In this document: positions 27,134 to 52,229 of the stretch, piece after piece
Layout of the letters: each line of letters starts with the position of its first letter
How positions within the stretch are numbered: the stretch's first letter is position 1
Assembly (NCBI RefSeq): GCF_031377265.1
Contig: NZ_JANMET010000111.1
Coordinates: 1 to 56,726 of the forward strand
DNA length: 56,726 bases
Reading direction: 5' to 3'
Source: Tabrizicola sp.
GTDB taxonomy: Bacteria > Pseudomonadota > Alphaproteobacteria > Rhodobacterales > Rhodobacteraceae
Notes under the pieces: generated by a model
The model's input: the letters and a program-made list of their open reading frames with translations, nothing else
What the model was told of the DNA's origin: nothing
Database searches by the model: none
Translations under genes and position numbers: made by a program

Positions 27134-29206
27134 TCAATTACCTGAGACGGTCCTGACCTCAAGCTGCAAGATGGCTGGCAGCGGGCCGGTTGCATCGGAT
27201 TCGTCAGTCAGGGCGACGACGCCGCGCGTTGCCTCGCCAAAACCCGCATCGCGGAACATGTCGTTCAACGGGCTGGCCGCCGCGCTGCGAGAGAGTTCTG
27301 CCGCGTCCTGCGCCAGATAGCCCAGATCCTCGACCGGGCTTTGCGGTTTGGCGGGGGTCACGACGATGATCATGCGTTCCTGGCCAAGGACAGTGTCGCT
27401 GATCTTGAACAGGCCCTTTTTCAGTTCGTCGCCCGGCTGCAGCCGCCCCGAAAACCAATGGCTGATCGAGTAGTCCGCGCCCACGTAAAGCACGTTCACG
27501 TCGACCGAGATGTCCATGTTGTTGCGCGCCAGTACGTGAACTTCGTCATCGGGGATAAGGGTTGGCACCGGCATGAAGGGCAGCGGCTTCAGGGTGCGGT
27601 CTTCGGGGTTGCGGGTCAGCATCTCGACCTCGACGTCAAGATTGCCGCTGCCCAAGGCATCGCCCAGCTTCAGCAGGTTCAGCGCCTTGGACATCGTGGC
27701 CAGCGTATCGCCGACCGCAAGGGCCAGGGTCGCGGAATCCTTGTCGGCGGTCGAGATCGAGGGCGTGGTCGCCAGATCTTCGGCGAGACCGGTAGAGAGC
27801 AGCACCCAGATCGCATCCGGGCGTGGGCTGTCGGCGATCACGGCCAGACGCAGGTCAGCCTCGGCCCCGGCGTTCACGAAGGTGAGGCGCGGGCCGGCCT
27901 CGGCCTTAAGGGCGTCGAGGGCCGCAAGCAGCGCGTCGGCGGGGGCGGTGCCGGGTTCTGGCAGCGCGACCGTCAGGGAAAAGTCGAGCGTGCTATCAAG
28001 CTTGCGCAGGAAGACGCCCTTGGGCAGGTCAGCGGGCAGCACTTTCCCATCCTTGGCCACAGCGACTCCGGTCGAGGTAAAAGTGTCGACCGAAGCCAGC
28101 TCGACAAAGCCGATGGCCGCGTCCGATGCGTCTGCCGCCGTTGCCATCACCGCCAGAACCGCGCCTTCGGACAGGCCGTGCAGCGACCCCGCCGGAATGA
28201 CAAAACTGCCGTCGGTCACGCTGGCCTGCCATTGCGCGACGCGTTCGCCGCCGACGCCGCCGAAAACCACCGCATCAAGATCGCCCTCGAACAGCGGGGT
28301 GGAGCGGGCGAGGTTCTTGACGGAATACTTACGCAACACCTCTTGCGCGATCTGCCCGTACGTGGCGCCGGGGTATTCGGCCAGCGTTTCCATCAGCGCA
28401 TAGGTGAACACGCCCTGCGGCTTGCGGTCAGGCTTGCCCTTGGGCAGGTTCTTTTCCGGCGTCACTTCATTGGTCTGCGCGGCGAAGAAAGCGACAAAGC
28501 TGCCATCGCCGTCGCCTGAGTCAAACGGAGCATCTTCGGGGGTGCGCGGGTCGCCAATGCTGCGGGTGACGACATCTTCCATTGCTTCAGGGGCGATCCC
28601 CAGGACGGCTGGGTCAAGTTGGCGGGTGCGCACCTCTTCATCACCAGCATCGACGCCGCGGGTAGCAGTGCCGGAATGACAGCTGTCAAACACTGCCCAG
28701 ACATCGACACCCTTGGCGCGCAGGGCATCAATCATGGCGCCGATCTCGTCATCAACAAGCGCGTTTTCGACATGGCCGGTAGTGTCGGACCATTGGCCGA
28801 TATCGACCGGCAGGAACAGCTCGTCCAGACCGTCAAGTTCCGAGGCCGGGTCTGCGGCAGGGGCTTGGGTGCCGTGGCCGGAGAAGTGCAGATAGACGAA
28901 ATCGCCCGGCTGCACTTTGGCCGTCAGATCGGTAAAGGCAGTGCGGATCGCGCCAAGGGTTGCGGGCGCTACGTCATCGCGGCCATCGGTCAGAACTGTG
29001 ACGTTCTCGGCCGCAAATGGCACCGGGGCCTCGGTCGTAAGGTAGGTGGCAACCAGCGCCACGTCATTGGCCGGACCCTTCAGCCACCAGCGTTCCTCGA
29101 GGTTGCGGTATTCGTTCGCGCCGATCAGGATCGCATAGTTTTCCCGTGCGAAAGCTGGCAGCGACAGGGCGGATAAGGCGGTGGCCAGAAGGAATTGGCG
29201 AATCAT
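27134..29206 (-). CDS. exported caspase-family (peptidase C14, orthocaspase-like) protein with a large C-terminal extension
   Basis: Signal peptide MIRQFLLATALSALSLPAFA|RE. The His/Cys dyad sits in YLHFSGHGTQ (His111) and VFDSCHSGT (Cys176; I checked codon TGT at 28679..28681). There is also a p10-like GVFTYALMETL block. The C-terminal ~200 aa resemble the DUF4384-type beta domain often fused to C14. Confidence 0.85.
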   Translation of the reverse strand: MIRQFLLATALSALSLPAFARENYAILIGANEYRNLEERWWLKGPANDVALVATYLTTEAPVPFAAENVTVLTDGRDDVAPATLGAIRTAFTDLTAKVQPGDFVYLHFSGHGTQAPAADPASELDGLDELFLPVDIGQWSDTTGHVENALVDDEIGAMIDALRAKGVDVWAVFDSCHSGTATRGVDAGDEEVRTRQLDPAVLGIAPEAMEDVVTRSIGDPRTPEDAPFDSGDGDGSFVAFFAAQTNEVTPEKNLPKGKPDRKPQGVFTYALMETLAEYPGATYGQIAQEVLRKYSVKNLARSTPLFEGDLDAVVFGGVGGERVAQWQASVTDGSFVIPAGSLHGLSEGAVLAVMATAADASDAAIGFVELASVDTFTSTGVAVAKDGKVLPADLPKGVFLRKLDSTLDFSLTVALPEPGTAPADALLAALDALKAEAGPRLTFVNAGAEADLRLAVIADSPRPDAIWVLLSTGLAEDLATTPSISTADKDSATLALAVGDTLATMSKALNLLKLGDALGSGNLDVEVEMLTRNPEDRTLKPLPFMPVPTLIPDDEVHVLARNNMDISVDVNVLYVGADYSISHWFSGRLQPGDELKKGLFKISDTVLGQERMIIVVTPAKPQSPVEDLGYLAQDAAELSRSAAASPLNDMFRDAGFGEATRGVVALTDESDATGPLPAILQLEVRTVSGN

Positions 29207-29215: not shown

Positions 29216-29851
29216 TCAGTTGGTCATCAGCGCGTAATTCGTTGCAGTTGGGCCGTTGTTTTCAACCCTCAGGGTGAAGGTGCCGCCGGTGGCCGGGGTC
29301 CAACCGCAGTAGGCAATGTGCGAAACATCGGTATCAGAACAGACCAGACGGCCCTGATCATCAAGGACGGTGAGGTTGAGATTGGTCGACGACTTTGCCT
29401 CGACATAGACTTCGGCATACTCGCCACCGCGAAATTCGATGGGCGGGTAGGTGTCATCGCTGCCGTTGGGCAACGCGCCGATGTTGTAGACCGGTCCGGA
29501 GGCCACGCCCTTGTTGGTTTCCGCGCGGACATCTTCGATCAGGCCAAGCATGGCTTCATCGCCGGTCGCCAGAGGTTCGGCACTGGCCAGCATTTCGTCC
29601 CAGCCAAGCGGGGCGTCAATTGCAGTTTGCCCGCCAGTGGCCGTGCGGTCGGTGGGGGTTGGCGCGATGGTCTTGCGCAGTTTCGCGGCAGCGATGATCA
29701 AAAGCGGATCTTGCGCCTCAAGCCCGACCGCGTAGAGCCGGGCAGAAAGCGCCGCCACCTTCACCGGCGACGGAACTTCGGCCAGGGCTGCCATCGGCAG
29801 GGCAGACAGCAGAAGGGTTGCAAGCAACGATCGGGTCATGCGGGCGCTCAT
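29216..29851 (-). CDS. secreted PPC-like (pre-peptidase C-terminal type beta-sandwich) domain protein, paralog 1
   Basis: The internal start gives MSARMTRSLLATLLLSALPMAALA|EV. The C-terminal half reads YAEVYVEAKSSTNLNLTVLDDQGRLVCSDTDVSHIAYCGWTPATGGTFTLRVENNGPTATNYALMTN and is paralogous to 38355..39056 and 39165..39860. Only 9 nt separate it from the caspase gene. Listed ORF 29216..30502 is a gross 5' over-extension. Confidence 0.7.
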   Translation of the reverse strand: MSARMTRSLLATLLLSALPMAALAEVPSPVKVAALSARLYAVGLEAQDPLLIIAAAKLRKTIAPTPTDRTATGGQTAIDAPLGWDEMLASAEPLATGDEAMLGLIEDVRAETNKGVASGPVYNIGALPNGSDDTYPPIEFRGGEYAEVYVEAKSSTNLNLTVLDDQGRLVCSDTDVSHIAYCGWTPATGGTFTLRVENNGPTATNYALMTN

Positions 29852-29925
29852 CAATACGGGTCTTGAGGCTGAAACATGAGGCCGGCCCGCGCCCCTGTAA
29901 ACACTCAAGTTTTCGATGACAGGCT

Positions 29926-29942
29926 TTGTCATGTGCCTCGGT
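29926..29942. promoter_or_regulatory. inverted repeat ATGACA-N5-TGTCAT in the divergent promoter region of the protease cluster
   Basis: Perfect 6-bp arms between the PPC1/caspase-1 operon (minus strand) and the HtrA-like operon (plus strand). Direct TGAGGC repeats also occur at 29864 and 29877. The function is inferred only. Confidence 0.25.
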
Positions 29943-29968
29943 TGGGGCGGGCTGGTAGCGTTGGGGCA

Positions 29969-31342
29969 ATGAAGCAGATCAGAGGGTCCGGAATGTTGTT
30001 TCGAAAAGCCGTCAAGCGGGTGCAACCGCTGGTGTGTATGGTTGAGGCGGTGGCCGTGGTAGTGGTCCTGGCGTTGGTGGCACTGGTGTCGCCTGCACAG
30101 GCAACGCCCTTGGACGCGGCGATGGACACGGTCTTTACGGTGCGCAGCGCCGATGCCGAAGACCGATTTCTGGGGTCGGCGTTCCTGTGGGGCGAGGCGG
30201 GTGAGGTTGCCGTGACCAACGCGCATGTCGTGGGTGCAGCAGAGGACGTTCGTCTGATTGACCGGCATGGCAACGAAACGACAGCGCTGGTTATCGCGCG
30301 TGATCCGGTGCGCGATGTGGCGGTGATTTCGGTCACGCCGGGGCGGCGGGGGCTGGTGATCGCCGATACCGTACCGGGGCTGGGGGCCGAGGTGTTCGCG
30401 CTTGGGGCGCCGCTGGGGGTCGAGTTCACGTTGACCGAAGGCCGGATTTCGGCGGCGGACCGGCAAGTGGAAATCGCAGTGCCGATGTTGATGCTGCAGC
30501 ATGATGCAGCGGTCAATCCGGGGTCGTCGGGCGGGCCGCTGGTGGACGCCGTGGGGCGGCTGGTTGGCATGAACAGCCAGATCGCCGACGGTAGCCGGAT
30601 GTTCGTGGGCATCGCTTACGCGATTCCTGCCGCTGATCTGTCGCGCATCGTGGCGGGGCTGATCGACGAGACCCTGGCACCGTTTCCGTCGTTGGGCATG
30701 ATGGCGCGCCCGGTGGACCGGCAGGTGGCTGGTGCGCTGGCAGTTACGCCCGCAGGGCTGTTGATCGACGGGGTCGAGGCCGGTGGTCTGGCAGAAATGT
30801 CGGGTCTGATGGCGGGGGATATCATTCTGGCGGTTGATGGGGTGGCACTGAAGCAGGCTGGTGATTTCGCCTTTGGCATCGAGGCCGCGGTGGCGAATGG
30901 CCAGGCGGCGGTGGCAATCTTACGCGGCAAGGATGCGATGGTTGTCATGCTGGCGTTTGGTGCAGGCGAGGCGGGTGAAGCCTTTGGCATCGGCATCAAG
31001 ACCCGGCAGATTGCGGGCGGCAACCCGGAACAAGTGACAAGCTATCGTCTTTCGGCGCTGGGCCTGATGCTGGGTGAGGGCGGGCTGGTCGAGGATGTGA
31101 CCGACAATTCCCCAGCCCTGTTTGCCGGGATCGCCAAGGGCGACCGGATCATCGCTGTGAACGGCGAGAAAGTGGATCTTGGCGCCCTGAGCGCGCTGGA
31201 GGTGACGGCAGCGGTGTTGATGCTGGTGACGGCTCCGGGCGGCGAGACACGGCATATCTACCTTGATCCCTGGGGTGCGACCGAGGGAGTGCGCCCGGTG
31301 GGCGGTGCAAATGTGCTTGACCCGGACGTGGTGGTGTTCTGA
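29969..31342 (+). CDS. exported HtrA/DegP-like serine protease (S1C) with two PDZ-like domains
   Basis: Catalytic triad contexts VTNAHVV, RDVAVI and NPGSSGGPLVD. Two PDZ-like segments are present (LLIDGVEAGGLAEMSGLMAGDIILAVDG; LVEDVTDNSPALFAGIAKGDRIIAVNG). The signal/TM reads VVVLALVALVSPAQA|TP. The start is 29969 or 29993. Confidence 0.85.
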   Translation: MKQIRGSGMLFRKAVKRVQPLVCMVEAVAVVVVLALVALVSPAQATPLDAAMDTVFTVRSADAEDRFLGSAFLWGEAGEVAVTNAHVVGAAEDVRLIDRHGNETTALVIARDPVRDVAVISVTPGRRGLVIADTVPGLGAEVFALGAPLGVEFTLTEGRISAADRQVEIAVPMLMLQHDAAVNPGSSGGPLVDAVGRLVGMNSQIADGSRMFVGIAYAIPAADLSRIVAGLIDETLAPFPSLGMMARPVDRQVAGALAVTPAGLLIDGVEAGGLAEMSGLMAGDIILAVDGVALKQAGDFAFGIEAAVANGQAAVAILRGKDAMVVMLAFGAGEAGEAFGIGIKTRQIAGGNPEQVTSYRLSALGLMLGEGGLVEDVTDNSPALFAGIAKGDRIIAVNGEKVDLGALSALEVTAAVLMLVTAPGGETRHIYLDPWGATEGVRPVGGANVLDPDVVVF

Positions 31343-31360: not shown

Positions 31361-32065
31361 GTGGGTGCCATGATTGAGCGCATTCTGATCGTGGAAGACG
31401 ATGCCGAGACCGCTGCCGCAGTGCGCGCAGTGGTGGAGGGGCTGGGCTGCGCCGCAGATCACTGCGACACGCTGGACGCCGGGATCGCGGCGGCGCATTC
31501 GGGCGATTACCGGGTGATCGTGCTGGACCGGATGCTGCCGGGCGGTGACGGGGTTGAGGCGATGGCGCGCATCCGGGCCGGCGGGTCGCGGGCGATGATC
31601 CTGATCCTGTCGGCGCTGGGACGGGCTGCAAACCGGGTCGAGGGGCTGGAGAAGGGCGCCGACGACTATCTGCCTAAGCCGTTCGAGGCGGACGAATTGC
31701 GCGCGCGGATACGGGCGCTGCTGCGACGTGGCACGATGCAGGTGCTGGACAACGATTTGATGGCCTTTGGTGATCTGGAAATCCGGCTGAAGGCGCGGAC
31801 GGTGCATGTCAAGCGCGCGCATGTGGCGGTCAGCCCCAAGGAGTTTGAGCTGATCACCTATTTCGCCAGCAATGCCGGGCAGTTGGTCACGCGGATGCAG
31901 CTGTTGGAAAACGTCTGGAACCTGCATTTCGACCCCGGCACCAACGTGGTTGACGTGCATGTCGGGCGGCTGCGGCGTAAGCTGGAGGAAGCCGGATCGC
32001 AGGCTATCCAGACCGCGCGGGGCGAGGGTTACATCTTTGCGCCGCCCACCGGGGCTGCCGGGTGA
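31361..32065 (+). CDS. OmpR/PhoB-family response regulator
   Basis: Receiver motifs are ILIVEDD, VLDRMLPGGDG, LSALG and KPF. The winged-helix output domain includes LSPKEFELITYF...VWNLHFDPGTNVVDVHVGRLRRKL. The start is GTG 31361 or ATG 31370. Confidence 0.9.
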   Translation: MGAMIERILIVEDDAETAAAVRAVVEGLGCAADHCDTLDAGIAAAHSGDYRVIVLDRMLPGGDGVEAMARIRAGGSRAMILILSALGRAANRVEGLEKGADDYLPKPFEADELRARIRALLRRGTMQVLDNDLMAFGDLEIRLKARTVHVKRAHVAVSPKEFELITYFASNAGQLVTRMQLLENVWNLHFDPGTNVVDVHVGRLRRKLEEAGSQAIQTARGEGYIFAPPTGAAG

Positions 32066-33444
32066 CGGCGGCCAAGGGGCCGGCTGCCAAGCCTCTGGCC
32101 GCACGAGCTACTTTGCGTCTGGCGGCACTGATGGCGCTGGCGGTCACAGTCTTGTCGATGGTCGGAATGGGGCTGCAATACCGTCTGGTCGAAGGCCGGA
32201 TGATGGCGGCGCAGCGGGCGCTGCTGACCGCCGATCTGGATGGGTTCGCGGCGCTTTACGACCAGCGCCGGATCATCGCGCTGCGTCAGGCCATCGAGTA
32301 CCGGGGGGCGGCGGCCACCGGTGAAGAAATGCTGTTGCTGATGGACCGCAACGGCAAGGTTCTGGCCGGCACGCGGGAAGGCTGGCCAAAGCAGCTGGAG
32401 CCGGAAGGAGCGGATTTCGAGATTGAACCGGCGCAGGTGTTTTCCGAGGCGGGTGTGCGCTGGCTGGCCGTCGCGCGGGATTTGCCGGGGGGGTTTCCGC
32501 TGCTGGTGGCGCGCAGCCTGAAGCCGGTGGATGACACGCTGGCGGCAATGCGGCGCGGGATGCTGGGCTTGCTGGCAGCAATTCTGGTGGCGGGGGCCGG
32601 GGTGGGTTGGATGGCGGCGCGGTCCGTGATGGCGCGGATCGGGCGGGTCAATGCCCTTGCCGACCGAGTGGCGGAAGGCGAGTTGGACGCGCGTCTGTCA
32701 GGCGCGCGGTCCGACGACGAGTTTGGCATGCTGGAGACCCACGTCCACGCGATGCTGGACCGTATCCAAAACCTCAACCGCGCGACGCACCGCCTTTCAG
32801 ATACCATCGCGCACGAACTGCGCACACCGCTGAACCGTATGCTGCAGAAACTGGCGAAGATCGATGGGCAAGAGGAGGTGACCGCCGATCTGCGGGCCGA
32901 GATGCGGCAGGCGATCAAAGTGTTCGATTCGCTGCTGGATATCAGCCGGGCCGAGGCCGATCAGGGCAGTGGCGGGGGGCTTCAGCCAGTGGATCTGTCA
33001 GCCGTGGCGCGGGAAGTGTGGGAGCTTTACGAGCCGTTGGCCGAGGACAAGGGGATGGTTGCAGATGCGTCGATCCTGCCGGGGTCCATGGTGTTGGGCG
33101 ATCGGAACCTTATTGCGCAGATGCTGTCGAACCTGATCGAGAATGCGATCAAGTATTGCGCGGCAGGTGACCGGGTGACGTTGTCGCTGGCCGATGCCGG
33201 GGATCGGTATCTGATGCGGGTTGCAGATACCGGGCCGGGTCTGCCCGAAGACATCAAGGGCGAAGCGTTCGAGCGGTTTGTGCGCGCCGAGCGTGACCGG
33301 GGCATCAAGGGGCACGGGCTTGGGCTGGCGCTGGTGCGGGCAATTGCGGCGCGGCATGGGGCGCGGCTGGAGCTGCCGCCCAGCGACACGGGTTTCGTGC
33401 TTGAAATCACCTGGCCAAAGATACAGTCATCGCGGGCCCCTTAG
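32062..33444 (+). CDS. sensor histidine kinase (2 TM, periplasmic sensor, HAMP, HisKA, HATPase_c)
   Basis: H-box HELRTPLN, N-box LSNLIENAIKY, G1 DTGPGL and G2 GHGLGLALV. Its GTGA start overlaps the response regulator stop. Confidence 0.9.
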   Translation: MTAAKGPAAKPLAARATLRLAALMALAVTVLSMVGMGLQYRLVEGRMMAAQRALLTADLDGFAALYDQRRIIALRQAIEYRGAAATGEEMLLLMDRNGKVLAGTREGWPKQLEPEGADFEIEPAQVFSEAGVRWLAVARDLPGGFPLLVARSLKPVDDTLAAMRRGMLGLLAAILVAGAGVGWMAARSVMARIGRVNALADRVAEGELDARLSGARSDDEFGMLETHVHAMLDRIQNLNRATHRLSDTIAHELRTPLNRMLQKLAKIDGQEEVTADLRAEMRQAIKVFDSLLDISRAEADQGSGGGLQPVDLSAVAREVWELYEPLAEDKGMVADASILPGSMVLGDRNLIAQMLSNLIENAIKYCAAGDRVTLSLADAGDRYLMRVADTGPGLPEDIKGEAFERFVRAERDRGIKGHGLGLALVRAIAARHGARLELPPSDTGFVLEITWPKIQSSRAP

Positions 33445-33459: not shown

Positions 33460-34890
33460 ATGCGCATCGCCATCATCCTGCTTTTGATCCTTGCCGGTTG
33501 TGCACCGTGGAACTGGCCGCAGAACCTGCCCCTGAATGGCGAGAACGCGGCACTGGTTGAACCGCTGGTAGTGGGGGATGGCGAGCTGTACATCGGCCTC
33601 GCATTTTCCGGAGGCGGCATGCGGGCCACGGCGTTTGCCTACGGAATGCTGAAGGAATTGCGCGCCGCGGGCATGGTGACCGGCACCCCGAATGGCCTGT
33701 TGGATCACGTCAGGCTGGTTTCCGGCGTTTCGGGTGGGTCGGTGATGGCGGCGCAGTTCGGGTTGAACGGCCCGCAGGGTCTGGACGGATTCCGCGAGAC
33801 TTACCTGATCACCAATGCCGAGAAGTACATGGCGACATCTGCCCTGAACCCGTTGACCATCGCCAAAGGCGTGGCGGGAGGGGTGAATAGCCGCGAAACT
33901 TTCGGGCGCTATCTGGACGAGGTGCTGTTCAAGGGCGCCACCTTTGGCGACCTGCGCAAACGATCAGGGGTCAAGACCTGGATCAACGCGACCGACGTTG
34001 CCAACAACACGCCCTTCCTTTTCAGCCCGGAAACGTTTGACGCGTTGTGTTCTGATCTTTCGAAGGTGCTGCTTTCGGAAGCGGTTGCTGCTTCTGCCGC
34101 CTATCCGCTGGTGTTCACCCCGATCGTGCTGACCGCGCATCATGGCAAATGCGACTACCGTGAGCCGGACTGGCTGACCGCCGCGCGCTATAACCCCGAG
34201 GCGACGGCTGCGATGCGGGCACATGCGCGGGCGCTGGAAAGCTATGGCAACCCCGACGAGGTGAAATTCGTCAAACTGCTGGATGGCGGCATCACCGACA
34301 ACTTCGGCACGACGGGTCTGGCAGTGGAACGTGCCCGCGCGCAGGCGCCATTTGCACCGATGACGCCAGAGGAGGCGGTGAAACTGAAGCGGATGCTGTT
34401 TCTGGTGGCCAACGCGGGGGTGGAAAAGGATTACGATTGGACGCGGCGGGTGGCAGGCCCCGGTGGTGTCGGGATGGCGATGTCGATTGCGACCAGTGCG
34501 ATGGCCGCCGCATCGCGGTCGGGGTACGATTCGATGCGAGGTGAACTGCGGTTCTGGGAGACGGAACTGATCGAATGGCGCTGTGCGCTGCCTCTGTCAG
34601 AAGTGCGTCGGTTGCGCGGCTCGACCGATGGCTGGGATTGCAGGGACGTGAAGCTGTTCGTCGGTGAGGTAAGCTTTGCCAGCCTGCCTGACGCCACGCG
34701 CGACAAGCTGGACGAAGTGCCGACGCGGTTGAAGCTGGCAGCAGCGCAGGTTGACATGGTGATCGAGGCTGGGCGTCTGGCCACGCGGGCGGCACCGGAG
34801 TTCAACGGCTTTCTGGCGTCGTTGGCCGGAAATGGCGTGGAAGGCCGGATTGCGGCGGGCGGGCGGCGTGTCGTGCCCTTGGGAAACTGA
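33460..34890 (+). CDS. patatin-like phospholipase, predicted lipoprotein
   Basis: Lipobox MRIAIILLLILAGC, oxyanion loop GLAFSGGGMRATAF, nucleophile elbow GVSGGS and catalytic Asp motif LLDGGITDNFG. Confidence 0.85.
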   Translation: MRIAIILLLILAGCAPWNWPQNLPLNGENAALVEPLVVGDGELYIGLAFSGGGMRATAFAYGMLKELRAAGMVTGTPNGLLDHVRLVSGVSGGSVMAAQFGLNGPQGLDGFRETYLITNAEKYMATSALNPLTIAKGVAGGVNSRETFGRYLDEVLFKGATFGDLRKRSGVKTWINATDVANNTPFLFSPETFDALCSDLSKVLLSEAVAASAAYPLVFTPIVLTAHHGKCDYREPDWLTAARYNPEATAAMRAHARALESYGNPDEVKFVKLLDGGITDNFGTTGLAVERARAQAPFAPMTPEEAVKLKRMLFLVANAGVEKDYDWTRRVAGPGGVGMAMSIATSAMAAASRSGYDSMRGELRFWETELIEWRCALPLSEVRRLRGSTDGWDCRDVKLFVGEVSFASLPDATRDKLDEVPTRLKLAAAQVDMVIEAGRLATRAAPEFNGFLASLAGNGVEGRIAAGGRRVVPLGN

Positions 34891-34965
34891 CATGGCAATG
34901 ACAAATGCGGTCATGGTCCGCGAGACACTTGTTCTGTGACCCGGGCCGGGTATCTTTGCGCCATC

Positions 34966-36924
34966 ATGCCGTACAGATTTCCATATGTTCTTTCTTTTGC
35001 TGCAGCCTTTGCGGCCTGTCCCGTTCAGGCCGAAGTGCGCGCCGTACTGATCGGCGTCAGCGATTATCTGGTGCTGGACGCCGATCTGCAGGGTCCGTCT
35101 TATGACGTGGCGCTGATGGCCGAGACGTTGGTGGTGCGCGGCGTGGACGCGGGCAAGATGACGGTGCTGACGGCCACCCCCACCGGCCTGCCAGCGGGTG
35201 TTGTCACCGGTCAGCCCGTGCGCGCCGAGATCATTGCGGCGATGGAGGCGGCGGCTGCGGCCTCGCAGCCTGGCGATACGGTGGTGTTCTACTTTTCGGG
35301 TCACGGCTCGCAGGCCCCGGACATGAGCGGCGATGAAGGCGGCGGCTATGACGAGATCCTGCTGCCCGCCGACGCAGCCGGGTGGAAGGGCGCGATCGGC
35401 GCGGTGGAAAACGCCTTGCTGGACGATGAGCTGCAAGCCTGGGCGCAGGGCATGCTGAGCCGTGGGGTAAAGCTGGTCGGGCTGGTTGATGCCTGCCATT
35501 CGGCCACCGGCTTTCGGGCGATTGGCGGCGAAGGCGTGGCGCGGGTGCTGGACCCTGAGGCGCTAGGCATTCCGGATTACATCGCTACAGTGGCGGGCGC
35601 CGAGGCTCCGCCGCTGTCGGGCGATTTCGTGTTTCTGTATTCCTCGCAGTCCGATCAACGGTCGTTCGAATACCCGTTGGGAGATGATGGCACCTGGCAT
35701 GGCGAGTTCACCCTGCGCCTTGCCGAGGTGTTGCGTAGCGCGCCGACGGCAAGTTGGGCGCAAGTATTGGCGGCCACTACGGATGCGATGGTGCAAGGTC
35801 CCGCGCGGCAGATGCCGGAAGGCGAAGGCACCTTGCTGGACGCGCAGGTGTTTGGCGCTGGTGCGGCTGAGGCGCGCATGGTGGTCGAGGGGGACGTTCT
35901 GAAGGCGGGTCTGTTGCAGGGCCTGACCGCAGGCAGTGAGGTGGCGCTGTATGCTGGCCCTGCTGGTGGCGATGCCTTGGGAAGGATGACCATCACCGAT
36001 GTGACCGCACGCGAAGCGCGTCTGGACGGCCCGGTGCCGAAAGGTGCAGTTTGGGCCGAACTTGTCAGTCTCGCCCCGCCAGCGCCGCTTACGCTGGCCG
36101 AACCGGTGCGCGCGGATGCGGCGGACGGATTGGATTATGCCGAATGGCTGGCGGCATTGCCTTCGGGCGAAGGGCCAGCTGACCTTGTGCCGATCCTGAC
36201 GGAAGGCAGCGTGGCGTTGGCCAATGCAGATGGCGTGCTTGACCCCGAAGGGCCGGGTTCCAGCCCCCGAATCATGCTTGAGGCCGGTGAGACCGCTGCC
36301 ATGGCCGTGGACCGGATGCTGGCGCAAGCCGAGCACGGCCTGCGTCTGCGCGAGGTGCTGGCTGGGGCGGCCGGGCGCAGTTTGACCGGCAAGGCGGCAG
36401 TGTCGATGCAGATCGAACGCCGAGTTGCGGCGGCGGCCGATGGGGCCTGCGCCGCGCCCGAGGCGGCGGTGGCCTATGATCCGGCGGACGGGGTTTCCGC
36501 CTGTGACCAGATCTGGCTGACGTTGACCAACACCGGTGGCAAGGCGCAGGATGTCTCGGTGCTGTACTTTGCCGCCAATTTCGAGGTGACCCCGATCTGG
36601 CCTGCGCAGAACCTTGCGAACCGGCTGGCACCGGGCGAAAGCGTCCGAGTGGGAATGCAGATCGAGCCGGGGCAGACGGCGGGGCTTGAGGAGATCTGGG
36701 TTCTGGCGGTGCCCGTAGATCCCGATGCCCCGCGCGTCGACCTGACACGCCTTGCAACGCCGCAGATGACGCGCGCCTTTGCAGGTGCCTCCGATGAGGT
36801 GACGATCTGGCTGGAAGGGCGGATGATCCCGCCAGACGAGGCCAGGACGCGCGGCTTCACGATTAAACCTGCCCCCCTGACGATGATCCGTCAGGTGGTG
36901 CGACTGAACCCCGGGACGGTGTGA
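34966..36924 (+). CDS. exported caspase-family (peptidase C14) protein, paralog 2, with a C-terminal extension
   Basis: Signal/lipobox-like MPYRFPYVLSFAAAFAACPVQA|EV. The dyad sits in VFYFSGHGSQ (His113, CAC at 35302..35304) and LVDACHSAT (Cys177, TGC at 35494..35496). It shares DE(I/L)(F/L)LP.D and VENAL.DDE blocks with 27134..29206. Confidence 0.85.
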   Translation: MPYRFPYVLSFAAAFAACPVQAEVRAVLIGVSDYLVLDADLQGPSYDVALMAETLVVRGVDAGKMTVLTATPTGLPAGVVTGQPVRAEIIAAMEAAAAASQPGDTVVFYFSGHGSQAPDMSGDEGGGYDEILLPADAAGWKGAIGAVENALLDDELQAWAQGMLSRGVKLVGLVDACHSATGFRAIGGEGVARVLDPEALGIPDYIATVAGAEAPPLSGDFVFLYSSQSDQRSFEYPLGDDGTWHGEFTLRLAEVLRSAPTASWAQVLAATTDAMVQGPARQMPEGEGTLLDAQVFGAGAAEARMVVEGDVLKAGLLQGLTAGSEVALYAGPAGGDALGRMTITDVTAREARLDGPVPKGAVWAELVSLAPPAPLTLAEPVRADAADGLDYAEWLAALPSGEGPADLVPILTEGSVALANADGVLDPEGPGSSPRIMLEAGETAAMAVDRMLAQAEHGLRLREVLAGAAGRSLTGKAAVSMQIERRVAAAADGACAAPEAAVAYDPADGVSACDQIWLTLTNTGGKAQDVSVLYFAANFEVTPIWPAQNLANRLAPGESVRVGMQIEPGQTAGLEEIWVLAVPVDPDAPRVDLTRLATPQMTRAFAGASDEVTIWLEGRMIPPDEARTRGFTIKPAPLTMIRQVVRLNPGTV

Positions 36925-36957: not shown

Positions 36958-38019
36958 ATGAGACTGCGTTTTGGACTGGCACTCCTCCCGCTGGTGCTTG
37001 CGACCGGGCTGGGTGCGGAAACAGCGGCCACCGAACTGGCCCCGGCTTTTGCGGCAGAGGAGGGGAACAGTTCGCCCTTTGCCTTTGCCAAAAGCGGCGC
37101 CAAGGCGGCGCGCGCGGCAGTGGCGGACACCGCGGGTGCCAAGGTCATCGGTGGCGAAATTGCAGCGGAAGGAGCGTGGCCATGGCAGGTTGCACTGCTG
37201 GTGGGTGGCACGCCAGTGGGCACCGACACGCAGTTCTGCGGCGGGTCGCTGGTAATGGATGAATGGGTGCTGACGGCGGCACATTGCGTCCATTGGAAGG
37301 GCGATGACGGAACCTTTGCCGATCTTCTGCCGCAGGATATCGAGGTGCTGGTGGGCACCAACGAGTTGAGCCCCGGAAGAGGCGACTTGATCGAAGTGGA
37401 GGCCGTGTTCAAGCACCCGTCCTATGTGGGAACGCAGTTCGATTTCGACATAGCGCTGGTGAAGCTGGCCCGCGCGCCGATGGTGCCGTACCAAACCATC
37501 GAAGTGCCGGATGGAGAATTTGGCGACATCCTGAACAAGCAGGGCGTGACGACTGTGGTCACCGGCTGGGGTTTGCAGGAAGGGGCGATGCCGTCGCCCG
37601 AATTGCGTCAGGCGCAGATCCAGATCCTCGACCGCGACCTGTGTAACAACGCGATGATGGAAGCGCGGGCCGAGGATGCGGCGGGCGGCTTTACCTATGC
37701 CGCGCAGACGCTTGGTGTGGCAGAGCAGGACGCCTATGCAATCTGGGATGAACTGGTTGCCCGCGCGCCATTGCCGGTCAGCGAGAACATGATCTGTTCA
37801 GGCACCTTCGAGGGCGGCAAGACCAGTTGCAACGGTGACAGTGGCGGACCTTTGGTCGTGCCGCTGGACGATGGCAGCTATATTCAGGCCGGGATCGTAA
37901 GCTGGGGTCTGACGGCCACAACCGGCAAGGGCTGCGAAGAGACGGCGTTGTTTTCGGCCTACACCAACATCTCGAAGTTCGTACCCTGGCTTAATCAGGT
38001 GATCGCGGCCAACCCCTGA
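36958..38019 (+). CDS. secreted trypsin-like serine protease (S1A, chymotrypsin fold)
   Basis: Signal peptide MRLRFGLALLPLVLATGLGA, then IGGEIAAEGAWPWQVALL, FCGGSLVMDEWVLTAAHC (His), DIALVKL (Asp), CNGDSGGPLV (Ser) and GIVSWG. Confidence 0.9.
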   Translation: MRLRFGLALLPLVLATGLGAETAATELAPAFAAEEGNSSPFAFAKSGAKAARAAVADTAGAKVIGGEIAAEGAWPWQVALLVGGTPVGTDTQFCGGSLVMDEWVLTAAHCVHWKGDDGTFADLLPQDIEVLVGTNELSPGRGDLIEVEAVFKHPSYVGTQFDFDIALVKLARAPMVPYQTIEVPDGEFGDILNKQGVTTVVTGWGLQEGAMPSPELRQAQIQILDRDLCNNAMMEARAEDAAGGFTYAAQTLGVAEQDAYAIWDELVARAPLPVSENMICSGTFEGGKTSCNGDSGGPLVVPLDDGSYIQAGIVSWGLTATTGKGCEETALFSAYTNISKFVPWLNQVIAANP

Positions 38020-38048: not shown

Positions 38049-38084
38049 GCCCCGTGCCTTGTTTTGAGGCGCGGGGCTTTTCTT
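38049..38084 (+). terminator. intrinsic terminator after the trypsin-like gene
   Basis: 10-bp stem GCCCCGTGCC / GGCGCGGGGC (one G-U pair), a 9-nt loop, followed by TTTTCTT. Confidence 0.6.
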
Positions 38085-38270: not shown

Positions 38271-38299
38271 CAAAAGGCCCGGACAGTGCTGCCCGGGCC
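38271..38299 (-). terminator. intrinsic terminator after PPC paralog 2 (minus strand)
   Basis: On the minus strand, the hairpin GGCCCGG(G)...CCGGGCC is followed by TTTTGCTT. Confidence 0.5.
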
Positions 38300-38354: not shown

Positions 38355-39056
38355 TCAGTTCGTCATCAGGTAATAGCTGTTGCGCGCCCGACCCATGTTC
38401 TGCACCGTCACGTAAAAGTAGCCGTCCCAGGACGGAGTGAAGTTGCAATAGAGCGAGTCCGACCAACTGACATCGTAGCAGAACACGTTGCCGTTTTCGT
38501 CGGTGATTGCCACATCAAGGTTGGCATCGCCGTCGCCCACGACGGCAATCTCGGCATAGGAGTTGCCATAGAACGGGATCTCCCAGACATCGGTCTGGCC
38601 CGATGGCAGCCGCGACAGCCAACTCACCGCCCCACCTATCCGTCCGCGCGAGCCTTCGGCTTCGGCGTCGGCGATAAGGCCCATCAGGATTTCGTCATCC
38701 GCAGCCAGTTCCTTGGCCTTGGCCAGCATCATCATCGCGTCGACCGGGGCGTCGGCTGCACCTTCTGCATCATCGGCGGGCATGTCGCCAGTCGTGGTTT
38801 TCTTGATGTCGCCGCCTTCTTTCACTTCCACGCCCATCGCCAGCTTGGCAGCGGTCAGCACGGTCAGTGCATCGCCTGACGCCACGCCCATCGCATAAAG
38901 CTGGCTGGCAAGGCCAAGGGTTTCGGCGCCACCAGCCGGTGAAGCGGCAGCCTCGGTGTTCACGTTGGTGCCCGTCTTGTCCTGTGCCATCACAGGCAGC
39001 GCGAGACCGATCAAGGCGGTCGTCGAGAGGGCGATCGAAAGGGATTTCAGGGTCAT
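38355..39056 (-). CDS. secreted PPC-like domain protein, paralog 2
   Basis: Signal MTLKSLSIALSTTALIGLALPVMA|QD. The C-terminal half reads SYAEIAVVGDGDANLDVAITDENGNVFCYDVSWSDSLYCNFTPSWDGYFYVTVQNMGRARNSYYLMTN. Confidence 0.75.
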   Translation of the reverse strand: MTLKSLSIALSTTALIGLALPVMAQDKTGTNVNTEAAASPAGGAETLGLASQLYAMGVASGDALTVLTAAKLAMGVEVKEGGDIKKTTTGDMPADDAEGAADAPVDAMMMLAKAKELAADDEILMGLIADAEAEGSRGRIGGAVSWLSRLPSGQTDVWEIPFYGNSYAEIAVVGDGDANLDVAITDENGNVFCYDVSWSDSLYCNFTPSWDGYFYVTVQNMGRARNSYYLMTN

Positions 39057-39075
39057 GGTTTATCCTATTCGTTGG

Positions 39076-39094
39076 CCGCCCCGGAGCGGGGCGG
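39076..39094 (-). terminator. GC hairpin between PPC paralogs 3 and 2
   Basis: 8-bp stem CCGCCCCG / CGGGGCGG with a 3-nt loop and no U-run. It could be an attenuator, a processing site or a weak terminator. Confidence 0.35.
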
Positions 39095-39164
39095 GATGCA
39101 GTGACTTTGGCAGGGTGGAAGTGCTTTGAGAAGACGGTTTGGCGTGACAAATATCGTCATATTC

Positions 39165-39860
39165 CTAATTGGTCAGCAGTTTGTAGCTGTTTACAGCCGT
39201 TCCGGTGTTGGCGACTGATATCGTGAAAAACCCATTCCGGGCGGGAACAAAGTCGCAAAACACCTGATCCGAGGCAGAAAGATCGGCGCAGATCAGTTTG
39301 CCTTCGGCATCGGTGACAACCAGATCAAGGTTGCTGTCACCGTCGCCCAGCAGGGCGATTTCAGCATAGCTTTCGCCAAAGAACGCAATTTGCCAGACAT
39401 CGGTTTGCCCGGCAGAAAGGTCTGACGTGGCGGCCGCTGCGGCCTCGATCCGGCCGCGCGGCAGTTGCGCGTCAAGGTCATAGACCAGATCCTGCAAGGC
39501 CGGGTCCTCCCCAGCCAGTGCCCGGGCTAGGACGATGGCCTGATCGCCCGCGGGGTTGGCCGCCGCACTGGCACCGGTCGGCTGATCAGGGATCGCGGTG
39601 CCAGTGGTTTCCTTCTTCCACCCCGCCGCCGGGCGTTCGGTGACGCTGCGCGCAAGGCGGATTGCGGTCAGCAGGGTGGTGGTGTCGCTGTCGCGCAGGG
39701 CGGTCGCATAAAGCTTGTAAGCCATTGCGAGTGTGGTTGCAGGGCCCGGCGCACCGTGCGGATTTGCGCTGAGGTTCGGCGCTTCGGCCAGCGTGGGGCT
39801 GGCGATAAGTGCTGCGATCAAAGAAAGGCGGGTCATCTGAATCCGGGGTATGGTTTCCAC
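39165..39860 (-). CDS. secreted PPC-like domain protein, paralog 3
   Basis: Signal (METIPRIQ)MTRLSLIAALIASPTLA|EA. The C-terminal half reads SYAEIALLGDGDSNLDLVVTDAEGKLICADLSASDQVFCDFVPARNGFFTISVANTGTAVNSYKLLTN. The start is 39860 or 39836. Confidence 0.7.
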   Translation of the reverse strand: METIPRIQMTRLSLIAALIASPTLAEAPNLSANPHGAPGPATTLAMAYKLYATALRDSDTTTLLTAIRLARSVTERPAAGWKKETTGTAIPDQPTGASAAANPAGDQAIVLARALAGEDPALQDLVYDLDAQLPRGRIEAAAAATSDLSAGQTDVWQIAFFGESYAEIALLGDGDSNLDLVVTDAEGKLICADLSASDQVFCDFVPARNGFFTISVANTGTAVNSYKLLTN

Positions 39861-43821: not shown

Positions 43822-46014
43822 TCAGGCCGTGACAGTCAGATATGGACGGCCTTCGGTAATGTGGCCGATCAGGGCGGCGGTTTCGCCAGCGCTGGCAAGG
43901 GCATCCAGCACGGATTCGGCCTGATCTGCAGGGATCGCGGCCAGCAAGCCGCCCGCGGTCTGCGGATCATGTAAGAGTGCGGCGCGGGGGGTGTCGGGGG
44001 TGGTCATCCGCCCGATCGTGCCCGCGCGGTTTTCCGCTGCAAGGCTGGAGCTGTGGCCCGCATTGGCCAGCGCTTCGGCCCCCGGTATCAGAGGCAGATT
44101 GGCCAGGCTGATCGTGGCAGCGGCGCCCGAGGCCTCAAGCAGTTCGAGCAGGTGCCCGGCAAGGCCGAAGCCAGTGATGTCGGTCATGGCATGGGCGTGC
44201 GGCGCAAGGATCGCGGCGGCTGCGCCAAGCGGGCGTTGCATGATGCCGAGGCATGTGGCGACCGCCTCGCCCAGAAGCAGGCCCGGCACCAACGCCATGG
44301 CCATTTCGGCGGCAAGAATGGTGCCCGAACCGATTGGCTTTGTCAGGATCAGCACATCGCCGGGCTGGGCGCCGGCTTTGGTAACCGCGCGGTTGGCAAT
44401 GCCGGTCACAGTGAAACCGATGGTCAGTTCAGCGCCTTGCGAGGTGTGGCCGCCGACGATGTCTGCGCCAGCTGCGCGAAAGACTTCGGTCGCTGCTTGC
44501 ATGATCTCGGCAAGCATCCGGGCCTGCAGTGCGGGACCAAGACGGGGCAGGGTGATCTGGGCCAACGCCACCTGCGGCGCGGCGCCCATGGCCCAGACGT
44601 CGCCCATCGCGTGAATGGCGGTGATCCGCGCCATCACCCGGGGATCGTTGGTGAAGGCGCGCAAATGGTCCGTGGTCATCACCTGAACACCGCCCGCTGT
44701 AGCGAGGATGGCAGCATCGTCGCCCGGGCCGGAAAGCACATCGCGGCGCTGTGGCGCGGGCAGTGCTGCCAGCGCATCGTGCAACACTGACGGGCCAAGC
44801 TTGGCGCCGCAGCCACCGCAAAGCGGCTTTTGCCCAATGGTTTCGGCCAGACCTGACGTTGCCTCACGGGGCACTGCGGGCAAGGGCATGGCCGGATAGG
44901 CCGCGAACCTGGCCATGAAGGCAGTGTCGATCCGGTGTTTCAGCCGCCACAACCAATGACCGGACAGGCGCAGCCCGAACTTGTCGGCGACGGCAGATTG
45001 CCCGCCGGTCGAGACAAGTTTCAGGTAGTCGCGCTGCGGGCGGAACCGGCGAAGCGTGCCGCCGGTCAGGGAAGCGCGCAGATTGCGGTGTAGCACCGGG
45101 GCTGCACGGACGGCAAAGACGCCCGCCTTGGGACGCGGGTTCTCGGTCAGGTGCGCGCAATCGCCGACCGCAAACACCGCGGGGTCGGAGGTTTGCAAGG
45201 TGGCGCTGACGGCAAGGAAACCGTTGGCCAGGGCAAGGCCGGTGTCGGCAAACCATGGGTTTGGTCGGCCATTGGTGACGGTAAGGGTGAAGTCTGATCC
45301 CAGCGTCTCGCCGGTGGTGAGGGTGACGCTGGTTTCGGTGACCGCGCGGGCAAGCGCGCCTGTCAGAAACCGGATACCAAGTGCCGCGGCCTCGCGCAGG
45401 ATTGCGGACCTGGCGGCACGACCGACGCCCGGCAACAGCTGCGGGCCTTGATCGACGACGGTGATTTGGGCGCGGGTGCCAAGCTGCTGGAGCCGGAAGG
45501 CCGAAGCCATCGCCAGTTCAACGCCGCCTATGCCGCCTCCGATAATGGTGATCCGGGGAAAGGCCAAGCGGCGGGCAAGGAACTTGTCCCACCGTGCGGC
45601 GTATGCGCCCAGCGGCTTGGCTGGCGTGGCATAGGCTGCAGCACCCGCGAGGTCTGGCAGGTCTGAGGTGATGCCTGTGTCGATCGAGGCGATATCAAAT
45701 GGCAACGGCGGCTGACCGGACAGATGCACCAGTCTTGCGTCCAGATCCAGCCCGGTGGCCGCATCCAGAATAAGCCGCGCCCCGGCAAAGCGCGCCAGCC
45801 GCACCAGGTCGATCATCAAGTCGTGGCGGCTGTAATGCCCGGCGATATGGCCGGGCAACATGCCGGTATAGGGTGCCGCGGGGCCGGGGTTGATCAAAGT
45901 CAGCCGGGTGCCGGGCAGCGGGTCCATCGCCCACATCCGCAGCACCAGTGCGTGCGCGTGGCCGCCACCGACCAACACAAGATCGCGCACGGCTGGGTGG
46001 GAGGCAGGTATCAT
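43822..46014 (-). CDS. selD: fusion protein: FAD-dependent pyridine-nucleotide-disulfide oxidoreductase (N-terminal) + selenide, water dikinase SelD (C-terminal)
   Basis: N-terminus DLVLVGGGHAHA (Rossmann FAD) plus a second GGGIGGVELA dinucleotide fold. The C-terminal half has the CGGCGAKLGP N-terminal SelD motif and AIR-synthase-like PurM-fold blocks (GDDAAIL, GGHTSQG). The start is likely at MIPASHP (46014) rather than 46047. Confidence 0.85.
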   Translation of the reverse strand: MIPASHPAVRDLVLVGGGHAHALVLRMWAMDPLPGTRLTLINPGPAAPYTGMLPGHIAGHYSRHDLMIDLVRLARFAGARLILDAATGLDLDARLVHLSGQPPLPFDIASIDTGITSDLPDLAGAAAYATPAKPLGAYAARWDKFLARRLAFPRITIIGGGIGGVELAMASAFRLQQLGTRAQITVVDQGPQLLPGVGRAARSAILREAAALGIRFLTGALARAVTETSVTLTTGETLGSDFTLTVTNGRPNPWFADTGLALANGFLAVSATLQTSDPAVFAVGDCAHLTENPRPKAGVFAVRAAPVLHRNLRASLTGGTLRRFRPQRDYLKLVSTGGQSAVADKFGLRLSGHWLWRLKHRIDTAFMARFAAYPAMPLPAVPREATSGLAETIGQKPLCGGCGAKLGPSVLHDALAALPAPQRRDVLSGPGDDAAILATAGGVQVMTTDHLRAFTNDPRVMARITAIHAMGDVWAMGAAPQVALAQITLPRLGPALQARMLAEIMQAATEVFRAAGADIVGGHTSQGAELTIGFTVTGIANRAVTKAGAQPGDVLILTKPIGSGTILAAEMAMALVPGLLLGEAVATCLGIMQRPLGAAAAILAPHAHAMTDITGFGLAGHLLELLEASGAAATISLANLPLIPGAEALANAGHSSSLAAENRAGTIGRMTTPDTPRAALLHDPQTAGGLLAAIPADQAESVLDALASAGETAALIGHITEGRPYLTVTA

Positions 46015-46223
46015 GCGGAAAACCATCAAAAGGTGCAACAGGGGCAAGCCCGCGCGACCCTATCCGCAGCAGTGCGGAAAGGCGAGGGCGGCAGGTGCAG
46101 ACGACGGCAGGTCCGGCTGCGCGACCATGGCTGCATGACTGTGGCCGGGCATTGCTGAGGTGTTGAGTGTGAGCGGCTTACGTGGGATCACTTGCGGACC
46201 AGCGCCTCAGAACCGGATGACAA

Positions 46224-49825: not shown

Positions 49826-49902
49826 GGCTAGGTAGCTCAGCTGGTTAGAGCACGCGACTCATAATCGCGGGGTCGGGGGTTCGAGTCCCCCCCTCGCCAC
49901 CA
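49826..49902 (+). tRNA. tRNA-Met (anticodon CAU), elongator type
   Basis: I folded the cloverleaf by hand. The acceptor stem is GGCTAGG/CCTCGCC (one U-C mismatch) and the D arm is GCTC-AGCTGGTTA-GAGC. The anticodon arm is CGCGA-CTCATAA-TCGCG and the T arm is GGGGG-TTCGAGT-CCCCC. A 3' CCA is encoded. It resembles E. coli elongator tRNA-Met, but tRNA-Ile2 (lysidine) cannot be excluded from sequence alone. Confidence 0.9.
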
Positions 49903-50030
49903 CCTAAATCTTCCAACATCCTGACAATAAACGGAAAATCGGCCCCACTTTTGGGCCAACCCACCGATTTTCCCACCAACAGGGTCTCGAAGCGCAAGAA
50001 ACCGTCCTCCCGGCCAGTGTCGCGCTGGCC

Positions 50031-52156: not shown

Positions 52157-52167
52157 GCTGTGGACCT

Positions 52168-52213: not shown

Positions 52214-52229
52214 AAAGCCAGGCGGAAAG

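Follow-up and report, generated by a model that had tools for sequence, protein, structure and literature searches.

What is the function of three small proteins with export signals that are encoded around a set of caspase-type proteases? A 56,726-nucleotide stretch of DNA from Tabrizicola sp. (contig NZ_JANMET010000111.1, positions 1 to 56,726; hereafter the window) raises this question, as it carries three paralogous genes, here named par1, par2 and par3, in the company of such proteases. We propose that their products serve as dedicated partners to a caspase-type protease module outside the cytoplasm and, more tentatively, that they are cognate substrates or pro-proteins of the cluster proteases, cut at a basic hinge or in a variable linker. 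The three genes were defined from the open reading frame (ORF) list and further evidence as follows.

29216..29839, minus strand: par1, PPC-family protein, 207 amino acids (aa), or 211 aa if the start is 29851 (ORF list, gene calls, family hidden Markov model (HMM), synteny).
38355..39056, minus strand: par2, PPC-family protein, 233 aa, the protein modelled (ORF list, structure model).
39165..39836, minus strand: par3, PPC-family protein, 223 aa, or 231 aa if the start is the GTG at 39860, in tandem with par2 (ORF list, gene calls, BLASTP).

The products of these three minus-strand ORFs can be aligned along their whole length, with BLASTP identities to par2 of 34% for par1 (E = 8e-32) and 41% for par3 (E = 3e-53). 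The family HMM, run on the window, matched par1, par2 and par3 and no fourth copy, indicating that the three paralogues claimed in an earlier, sequence-only reading of this DNA are real. The coordinates given there for par2 (38355..39056) stand. Those for par1 and par3 had been extended upstream, to 29851 and 39860; database gene calls and orthologue alignments place the likely starts farther in, where a conserved MTR begins (29839 and 39836). A 428-aa ORF enclosing par1 (29216–30502, minus strand) and many other overlapping ORFs are artefacts and not genes, since DNA of 64% G+C is poor in stop codons and yields long antisense or upstream-extended ORFs.

Each product begins with a signal-peptide-like N-terminus ending in an AxA-type site (ALA/EV, VMA/QD and TLA/EA, the slash marking the site), and the three have in common a helix of the pattern LYA..G...D.L....A.(K/R)L, an acidic linker and two cysteines. 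The architecture described earlier (signal peptide, Ala-rich helix, acidic linker and two Cys) is thus present in all three paralogues, as are the tails LMTN (par1), LMTN (par2) and LLTN (par3). The GDGD.NLD block near the C-terminus, also attributed to all three, is found in par2 and par3; par1 has AKSSTNLNL instead, and this replacement, in the form AK(S/A)xTNLNL, is kept across all par1 orthologues aligned.

To describe the protein architecture we used an AlphaFold2 model of par2 built from 38 homologues (mean pLDDT 83.9, pTM 0.75), which divides the minus-strand gene into the following parts.

38985..39056, minus strand: signal peptide, residues 1–24 (...LPVMA/QD), from sequence, with helix 4–17 in the model.
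38658..38930, minus strand: helical module, residues 43–133, alpha-hairpins 43–74 and 107–133 around a beta-hairpin and a low-confidence, variable acidic linker (model, alignment).
38640..38657, minus strand: hinge loop GSRGRI, residues 134–139, with the family-conserved [RK]-G (alignment, model).
38358..38639, minus strand: eight-stranded PPC-like sandwich, residues 140–233, with Cys193, Cys204 and the terminal TN (model, Foldseek, Pfam, alignment).

In the model, the signal helix (4–17) is followed by the helical hairpins 43–60 plus 63–74 and 107–118 plus 122–133, between which lie a beta-hairpin (76–89) and the acidic linker (~90–106, low confidence); a six-residue loop then leads into eight strands spanning residues 140–232. 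The length of the acidic linker varies strongly among orthologues (229- to 279-aa forms). Many par2 orthologues (e.g. P0016, P0020, P0025 and P0044) carry a non-conserved insertion of ~40–45 residues between the helical hairpins (262–279-aa forms), indicating that the linker tolerates large changes in length. The earlier description of a stand-alone sandwich therefore holds in that the protein is separate; it is no bare sandwich, as a conserved helical module makes up roughly half of the mature protein. Modelled by itself, this module reached a pLDDT of 71 and gave nothing better than E = 6 in Foldseek. Profile searches against PDB sequences returned only designed helical repeats and coronavirus nsp8, which we rejected as compositional matches to Ala-rich helices.

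The sandwich, by comparison with solved structures, has a familiar fold. Foldseek searches of the PDB with the par2 model matched it at probability 1.0 over ~91–96 residues, with root mean square deviations (rmsd) of 2–3 Å, to p24 GOLD domains, the C-terminal jelly roll of the subtilase Tk-SP (3afg), the ColH/ColG collagen-binding domains (3jqw, 1nqd) and the C-terminal domain of KP-43; carbohydrate-binding modules were also among the matches. The PPC domain of Bacillus anthracis collagenase (5sv5) aligned with a TM score of 0.70 (target-normalised) and an rmsd of 2.5 Å, 3jqw and 1nqd with TM scores of 0.62 and 0.63, and 3afg_B with an rmsd of 2.1 Å. The predicted structure thus contains the PPC-like sandwich that had been claimed, and the modelled domain superposes on solved PPC and collagen-binding domains. 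GOLD domains were the top matches (5gu5, E = 4.8e-6; 7rrm, TM 0.81, target-normalised), at an identity of just 12–17%; this likeness is a resemblance of fold only, the context here being the bacterial periplasm and not the eukaryotic secretory pathway.

At the level of sequence the relationship to PPC is distant. The best match of Pfam PPC (PF04151) in the window was par2, at E = 0.15 and 13.4 bits against a cut-off of 25.9, and par1 and par3 gave no match to this model. Among 70 diverse homologues, 16 matched it (E ≤ 0.1, best E = 3.5e-7), and one family member is auto-named in UniRef 'Peptidase C-terminal archaeal/bacterial domain-containing protein'. We therefore regard the sandwich as a divergent PPC-type domain; the window proteins are divergent PPC relatives and not scored PF04151 members. 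The biological definition of PPC, a domain that lies C-terminal to a secreted peptidase domain in the same polypeptide and is cut off during maturation, does not apply to par1–3, which are free-standing proteins of 207–233 aa.

Like PPC and collagen-binding domains, the par proteins have a ~95-residue eight-stranded sandwich (superposing at 2–3 Å), the pattern D.Y.F ... GD.DLDL.V.D..G ... G.Y.I.V ... Y.L and an exported setting with proteases, and Pfam PPC matches a subset of the family. Unlike them, they are not fused to a peptidase, carry a helical module and a basic hinge in front of the sandwich, and have two conserved cysteines and a Thr-Asn end; their partners are clan-CD cysteine peptidases and HtrA, whereas those of PPC domains are subtilases or metalloproteases. 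The par proteins may bind Ca2+, and their two cysteines may form a disulfide. A copper-binding role was set aside, as there is no conserved His or Met and only two Cys, on neighbouring strands.

How widespread are such proteins? When 1.84 billion representatives (50% identity clusters) were searched with a profile built from par1–3, the family comprised 2,683 clusters at E ≤ 1e-3, 1,375 at ≤ 1e-10 and 234 at ≤ 1e-30. Of the 150 best representatives, 133 were 190–260 aa long and most were matched nearly full length, and almost all family members fall at 200–250 aa; a third homologue search with a broad profile mostly returned par2 relatives once more. Named members belong to Paracoccaceae (Tabrizicola, Neotabrizicola, Fuscovulum, Rhodobacter, Pseudorhodobacter and Pseudogemmobacter), Bosea (Hyphomicrobiales) and Pontibacterium (Gammaproteobacteria), and all of them are annotated 'hypothetical'. 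Pfam, NCBIfam and PADLOC contain no model for the stand-alone family with its helical module, hinge and fixed terminus, and par1–3 matched nothing in NCBIfam or PADLOC.

Conservation was counted in 229–230 non-redundant sequences, combining representatives and metagenome loci. The last residue is Asn in 205/229 and the last two are Thr-Asn in 183/229, such that the C-terminal conservation noted in the three paralogues persists in a wide alignment. The hinge position, a loop in the par2 model, is Arg or Lys in 188/230 (82%) and is followed by Gly in 193/230 (84%), and 140 of 150 representatives have two cysteines among their final 100 residues. The acidic motif GDGD.(N/D)LD / DE.GN (DENGN) is kept in par2, par3 and most of the family and is replaced in par1. 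Some relatives (P0240 and P0284, also L156/L157) are built solely of the sandwich, repeated three or more times in tandem, and lack the helical module; each repeat closes in T(N/S) before a Ser-rich linker. This suggests that Thr-Asn belongs to the domain and not just to the chain end. It may act as a structural cap and may pair with the hinge Arg, should the first strand lie beside the last. Legumain-like processing at the C-terminal Asn was set aside, as this Asn is the encoded terminus.

These features bear on one explanation of the family, in which the sandwich acts as a PPC module in trans, binding, perhaps Ca2+-dependently, to a polymer or to a target in the envelope, and recruiting or stabilising the proteases there. 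The fold match to ColG/ColH collagen-binding domains and carbohydrate-binding modules suits such a role, as do the conserved acidic and Asn residues of par2, par3 and most of the family, the tandem-repeat versions of the sandwich, and the fact that the neighbouring C14 peptidases, C14a and C14b, have no PPC domain of their own by Pfam. We nevertheless consider it unlikely: the GDGD/NLD motif is missing from par1, although no other paralogue is linked so closely to a protease, the conserved helical module and hinge are left unexplained, and no ligand is indicated.

Which proteases accompany the par genes? In the window, par1–3 frame an 11-kb block, with argE following beyond the par2–par3 pair. 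On the minus strand, par1 is followed by C14a; on the plus strand, a gene for an HtrA-like protease is followed by those for a response regulator, a histidine kinase, a patatin-like protein, C14b and an S1 protease; and par3 is followed by par2 on the minus strand.

27134..29206, minus strand: C14a, metacaspase-type peptidase with an export signal, sharing an operon with par1; its His-Cys dyad lies in FSGHG and DSCHSG (Pfam, alignment, synteny).
29969..31342, plus strand: HtrA/DegP-like serine protease with two PDZ domains (ORF open from 29876), divergent from par1 (Pfam/HMM, Trypsin_2 and two PDZ).
31361..32065, plus strand: OmpR-family response regulator, nearest to the CopR/CusR subfamily, below the cut-off (HMM).
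32062..33444, plus strand: sensor histidine kinase, nearest to the CopS/CusS subfamily, below the cut-off (HMM).
33460..34890, plus strand: patatin-like phospholipase with a lipoprotein-type signal (LAGC) (ORF list, Pfam, synteny).
34936..36924, plus strand: C14b, second exported metacaspase-type peptidase, full-length paralogue of C14a (Pfam, alignment).
36958..38019, plus strand: S1 (trypsin-fold) serine protease, exported, last gene of the plus-strand operon (ORF list, Pfam).
38049..38077, plus strand: terminator-like hairpin and T-tract after the S1 protease gene (sequence scan).
38276..38299, minus strand: terminator-like hairpin and T-tract after par2 (sequence scan).

The hairpins after the S1 protease gene and par2 point to three transcription units. 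N-terminal signal peptides are found in C14a, C14b and the S1 protease, a lipobox in the patatin-like protein and a hydrophobic N-terminal segment in the HtrA-like protein. The two C14 proteins, 29% identical along their full length, match Pfam Peptidase_C14 at E = 1e-16 and 1e-21, and the best solved relative of C14a is the yeast metacaspase Yca1 (E = 1.2e-15), with GPAND, FSGHG, FDSCHSG and DG.D....PVD aligned. The S1 pocket of TbMCA2 is lined by Asp95, Ser156 and Asp211 (PMC4357240), and the GPAND, SGHG and DSCHSG motifs of C14a fall at these positions. Judged by its sequence, the enzyme has the His-Cys dyad and acidic S1-pocket residues of metacaspases/orthocaspases (C14B), which would imply specificity for Arg/Lys; orthocaspases cleave after basic residues (PMC6426788).

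Several further observations concern the neighbouring genes. C14a and C14b have C-terminal extensions of ~370 aa (27134–28250 and 35900–36924, respectively), which are homologous between the paralogues and have no Pfam match. The S1 protease, read by eye, has Thr and not Asp six residues before the catalytic Ser (KTSCNGDSGGP), so that it is probably not trypsin-like in specificity despite its Pfam Trypsin match. The lipoprotein signal of the patatin-like phospholipase is MRIAIILLLILAGC, and its gene, inside the protease operon, is found in some related clusters and absent in others. In PADLOC, the C14 proteins match a generic caspase model only. Farther along the window, a tRNA-Met gene (49826–49902) precedes a stretch of lower G+C (0.62; 50000–54000) with a GC skew near zero, which encodes a pyridoxal-dependent decarboxylase and an amino-acid permease.

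The association of par genes with proteases recurs in other genomes. In Paracoccaceae, the same gene layout is found in 76 loci, and C14a directly follows par1 in 35/37 loci, the exceptions being one at the end of the fetched DNA and one decayed cluster. Eight of ten distant representatives looked up singly have a C14 or TPR/CHAT gene within 8 kb, mostly with an HtrA-like gene and sometimes with a response regulator and histidine kinase. Gene orders vary: the Pontibacterium cluster combines C14 with CHASE2, Bosea has PPC protein, TPR-CHAT, HtrA, response regulator and histidine kinase in this order, and a 7.8-Mb genome has TPR, TPR, C14, two PPC proteins and HtrA. The TPR-CHAT, C14 and HtrA proteins of the distant clusters mostly carry N-terminal signal peptides. 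Other envelope-signalling parts take the place of the two-component system in some distant clusters, namely the CHASE2 protein in Pontibacterium (L077, 5525–6922) and an anti-sigma-like zf-HC2 protein in another (L087, 5625–6542).

An independent metagenome sample gave similar results. It comprised 80 loci collected through a different sub-alignment and scored with purpose-built HMMs, and counts were restricted to the 41 loci whose flanks reached 5 kb or more. A C14 or CHAT gene was present in 34/41 (83%), often in one operon with an HtrA-like protease, and some cluster protease type in 37/41 (90%). In 27/41 (66%), one of these genes lay no more than 400 bp away in the same orientation, and the order HtrA, PPC protein, TPR(-CHAT) recurred. 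Clan-CD genes reach a density of ~88 per Mb in these loci, against a general background estimated to be of the order of one per Mb. The linkage of the family to proteases is not chance. Homologues are thus widespread and mostly have protease neighbours (C14 or CHAT in 83–85% of this sample); the stronger expectation that they always stand next to C14 is false, since orphan par2 genes exist, for example in Pseudorhodobacter.

Such orphans, beside argE or housekeeping genes, would suit an unrelated periplasmic protein whose proximity to proteases reflects shared genomic-island ancestry and coincidental synteny without shared function. So would relatives that lack the protease block between par2 and the FtsX/ABC genes: in L079 and others, argE–par2 abuts FtsX, ABC and FAD-oxidase genes, which lie beyond the protease block in the window. 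We find this explanation hard to credit, because the linkage spans Alpha- and Gammaproteobacteria and diverse metagenome loci with rearranged gene orders, and because orphan par2 genes, too, retain an operator box (described below). Clusters with two or three paralogues of the family also occur in distant loci (L083, L084, L086 and L088), indicating that the triplication is old and no local accident.

Is the par protein, then, a substrate of its neighbours or a molecule that holds them in check? The main rival to the substrate model is a cognate inhibitor or chaperone, which would bind the exported C14/CHAT protease (or S1/HtrA) in the periplasm and keep it latent or aid its folding, the Arg/Lys-Gly loop serving as a pseudo-substrate in the S1 pocket, like a prodomain in trans. 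Gene spacing favours it: par1 lies upstream of C14a in the same reading frame with a gap of 9 nucleotides (nt), and by tblastn coordinates the genes abut in relatives, as for 1:1 partners. Similarly, the conserved basic residue sits in a short, fairly rigid loop (pLDDT ~80). Periplasmic beta-barrel inhibitors encoded beside secreted proteases are well known, among them Inh/AprI and the staphostatins, and this counts in its favour. Precedents of a related kind are the RgpB prodomain, which puts an Arg into the S1 pocket (PMC4357240), and securin, which holds separase (PMC11506125). The conserved basic residue of the par loop could likewise sit in an Arg/Lys-specific S1 pocket (PMC4357240). Unlike the RgpB prodomain and securin, the par proteins are encoded by a separate gene, show no sequence or structural likeness to them, and their paralogue number does not match that of the proteases. 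PDB profile searches and Foldseek found no sequence or fold likeness to known inhibitor families or to CpxP/Spy-type regulators, the sole inhibitor in the Foldseek list for the sandwich being PliG, at rank 41. Many clusters, moreover, contain one PPC protein for two or three proteases of different classes, and orphan par2 genes exist. Taken together, an inhibitor or chaperone seems to us doubtful, if well worth considering.

How are these genes controlled? A motif scan identified a palindromic box at three positions within the block.

29916..29932, no strand assigned: palindromic box ATGACAGGCTTTGTCAT in the spacer between the divergent par1 and htrA.
34899..34914, no strand assigned: box ATGACCGCATTTGTCA (minus strand), just upstream of C14b.
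39145..39160, minus strand: box ATGACGATATTTGTCA, 89 nt upstream of the par2 ATG.

The box has the consensus TGAC-N5-TTGTCA and, in its fullest form, reads ATGACA-N5-TGTCAT. The window contains five matches at no more than one mismatch against 0.51 expected, a number reached by 0/100 shuffles. Related loci totalling 1.39 Mb contain 128 boxes, where shuffles give 0.9; almost all of these boxes occupy the same three positions, and a box lies upstream of par2 in 50/57 par2 loci, orphans included, at a distance of 86–212 nt and mostly ~90 nt. A conserved box ahead of par1/htrA, C14b and par2 suggests a single shared regulator, probably the cluster's own CopR/CusR-like response regulator, which would control par1, the genes from htrA to the histidine kinase, C14b with S1, and par2. 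A reading of the box as a sigma-54 promoter was rejected, as the GG and GC positions are missing. A fourth box (46218–46233) lies in the spacer between rpoN and a selD-like gene, overlapping the rpoN start (46224) and 171 nt upstream of a minus-strand Pyr_redox_2–AIRS (SelD-like fusion) gene (43822–46047); it hints at a regulon reaching past the protease cluster.

The best families for the two-component system are the CopRS/CusRS models, and neither protein reaches the cut-off for membership: the response regulator scores 166.7 bits with TIGR01387 (cut-off 279.2) and the histidine kinase 156.2 with TIGR01386 (cut-off 292.55). The cusR/cusC spacer of E. coli contains AAAATGACAATTTTGTCATTTT, with the same half-sites as our box and a 4-nt instead of a 5-nt spacer; we take this palindrome to be the CusR site itself. 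The same intergenic spacer contains the only strong binding peak of unphosphorylated CusR (PMC8249747). The window system thus resembles the E. coli CusRS/CopRS regulon (ATGACA-N4-TGTCAT) in its half-sites and in scoring best against heavy-metal subfamilies. It differs in its sub-threshold scores, its 5-nt spacer, its protease and PPC targets in place of metal efflux, and the lack of an evident metal-binding motif.

The shared box bears on a further explanation, in which the par protein is a periplasmic signalling regulator, either modulating the histidine kinase in the manner of CpxP or ExoR, or activating or feeding the HtrA-like protease through PDZ recognition of its free C-terminus, with turnover by the proteases closing a feedback loop. 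The divergence of par1 from the htrA–response regulator–histidine kinase genes across a spacer with the box, a divergent layout repeated in the distant P0286, fits this idea, as do the PDZ-bearing HtrA-like gene adjoining the PPC gene in many loci and the exact ending at Asn of ~90% of members. HtrA PDZ domains, for their part, usually prefer hydrophobic C-termini, which counts against it. In tandem-repeat relatives, Thr-Asn is conserved inside the chain, where it is not a free terminus, and the par2 model places the last strand within the sandwich. Response regulator and histidine kinase genes, finally, occur in just 7–9% of metagenome loci, so that the two-component system is not core. DdvA of Myxococcus xanthus, whose periplasmic TPR-CHAT acts in signalling, offers a precedent (PMC11506125). 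This anti-sigma factor shows a caspase-fold TPR-CHAT domain at work in the periplasm, in envelope signalling; unlike the window system, it is membrane-anchored, coupled to an ECF sigma factor and has no PPC-type partner described (PMC11506125). On balance, we rate a signalling regulator of this kind as very unlikely.

We return to the proposal that the par proteins are substrates or pro-proteins. In this mechanism, they would be exported along with metacaspase-type C14 and/or TPR-CHAT peptidases and an HtrA-like protease, joined in this lineage by the S1 protease and the CopR/CusR-like two-component system. Cleavage would occur after the conserved basic hinge residue or within the variable linker, separating the helical module from the sandwich, and one of the released fragments would act as the output. 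We favour this model on three grounds. Clan-CD proteases are repeatedly encoded beside their substrates, as in craspase–Csx30 and bacterial gasdermins; a single PPC protein is often found with several proteases from different classes; and the most conserved feature outside the core is an exposed [RK]-G, which fits the P1 preference expected of the neighbouring enzymes.

Several points weigh against the substrate model. In about 14/49 Paracoccaceae loci with long flanks, par2 (alone or together with par3) has no clan-CD gene nearby, over a distance of 10 kb. In one metagenome-assembled genome, the protease block simply sits on a different contig (L030 versus L070), and the Pseudorhodobacter par2 lies amid housekeeping genes. 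No fusion of a PPC protein to a protease (C14, CHAT, HtrA or S1) was found in 167 loci, and paralogue number does not follow protease number. The conserved R/K-G could be purely structural; if the first strand adjoins the last, for instance, its Arg could pair with the carboxylate at the C-terminus. The very tight or overlapping spacing with a protease gene suits a stoichiometric inhibitor or chaperone at least equally well, and the strict Thr-Asn terminus is not explained by a substrate. The family, its fold, the signal-peptide-like N-termini, the genomic linkage and the shared box are observed here, whereas cleavage, its site and the direction of its effect are predictions of the model.

Known systems offer partial parallels to the proposed substrate relationship. 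The craspase TPR-CHAT/Csx30 pair and the pairs of caspase-like proteases and gasdermins likewise place a small protein beside a caspase-fold protease, often in one operon, and the par proteins share with them a candidate cleavage site between two modules. Those systems belong to cytoplasmic defence; here, in contrast, the components mostly have signal peptides, PADLOC found no defence match for par1–3, and the fold is unrelated. A fuller version of the model would make the cluster an extracytoplasmic caspase-type proteolytic signalling cascade, in which C14/TPR-CHAT and HtrA process the PPC pro-protein at the hinge and the fragment is a signal or effector, such as a ligand of the CopS/CusS-like kinase that feeds back on the box promoters. 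This we regard as rather improbable. If true, pro-ligand activation cascades would have a counterpart in the bacterial periplasm, and a defined physiological substrate of bacterial metacaspases would be in hand.

The fold itself is already known from PPC, collagen-binding and GOLD-like sandwiches. What appears to be new is a family of free-standing proteins that combine the sandwich with a helical module, a hinge and a fixed terminus, together with the link of this family to exported clan-CD proteases and HtrA and with the operator box: we found no prior description of the family, of this linkage or of the box in the searchable literature. All small components of this module are annotated 'hypothetical', and a conserved envelope protease module may have been missed so far for this reason. 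Little is known about TPR-CHAT proteins (PMC11506125). Bacterial metacaspase/orthocaspase homologues and TPR-CHAT proteins are abundant, and their physiological substrates and partners are largely unknown. The unnamed family described here, which numbers no fewer than 2,683 clusters and is found almost constantly beside genes for exported C14, TPR-CHAT and HtrA-like proteases, provides a concrete candidate partner for bacterial metacaspases and periplasmic TPR-CHAT proteins.

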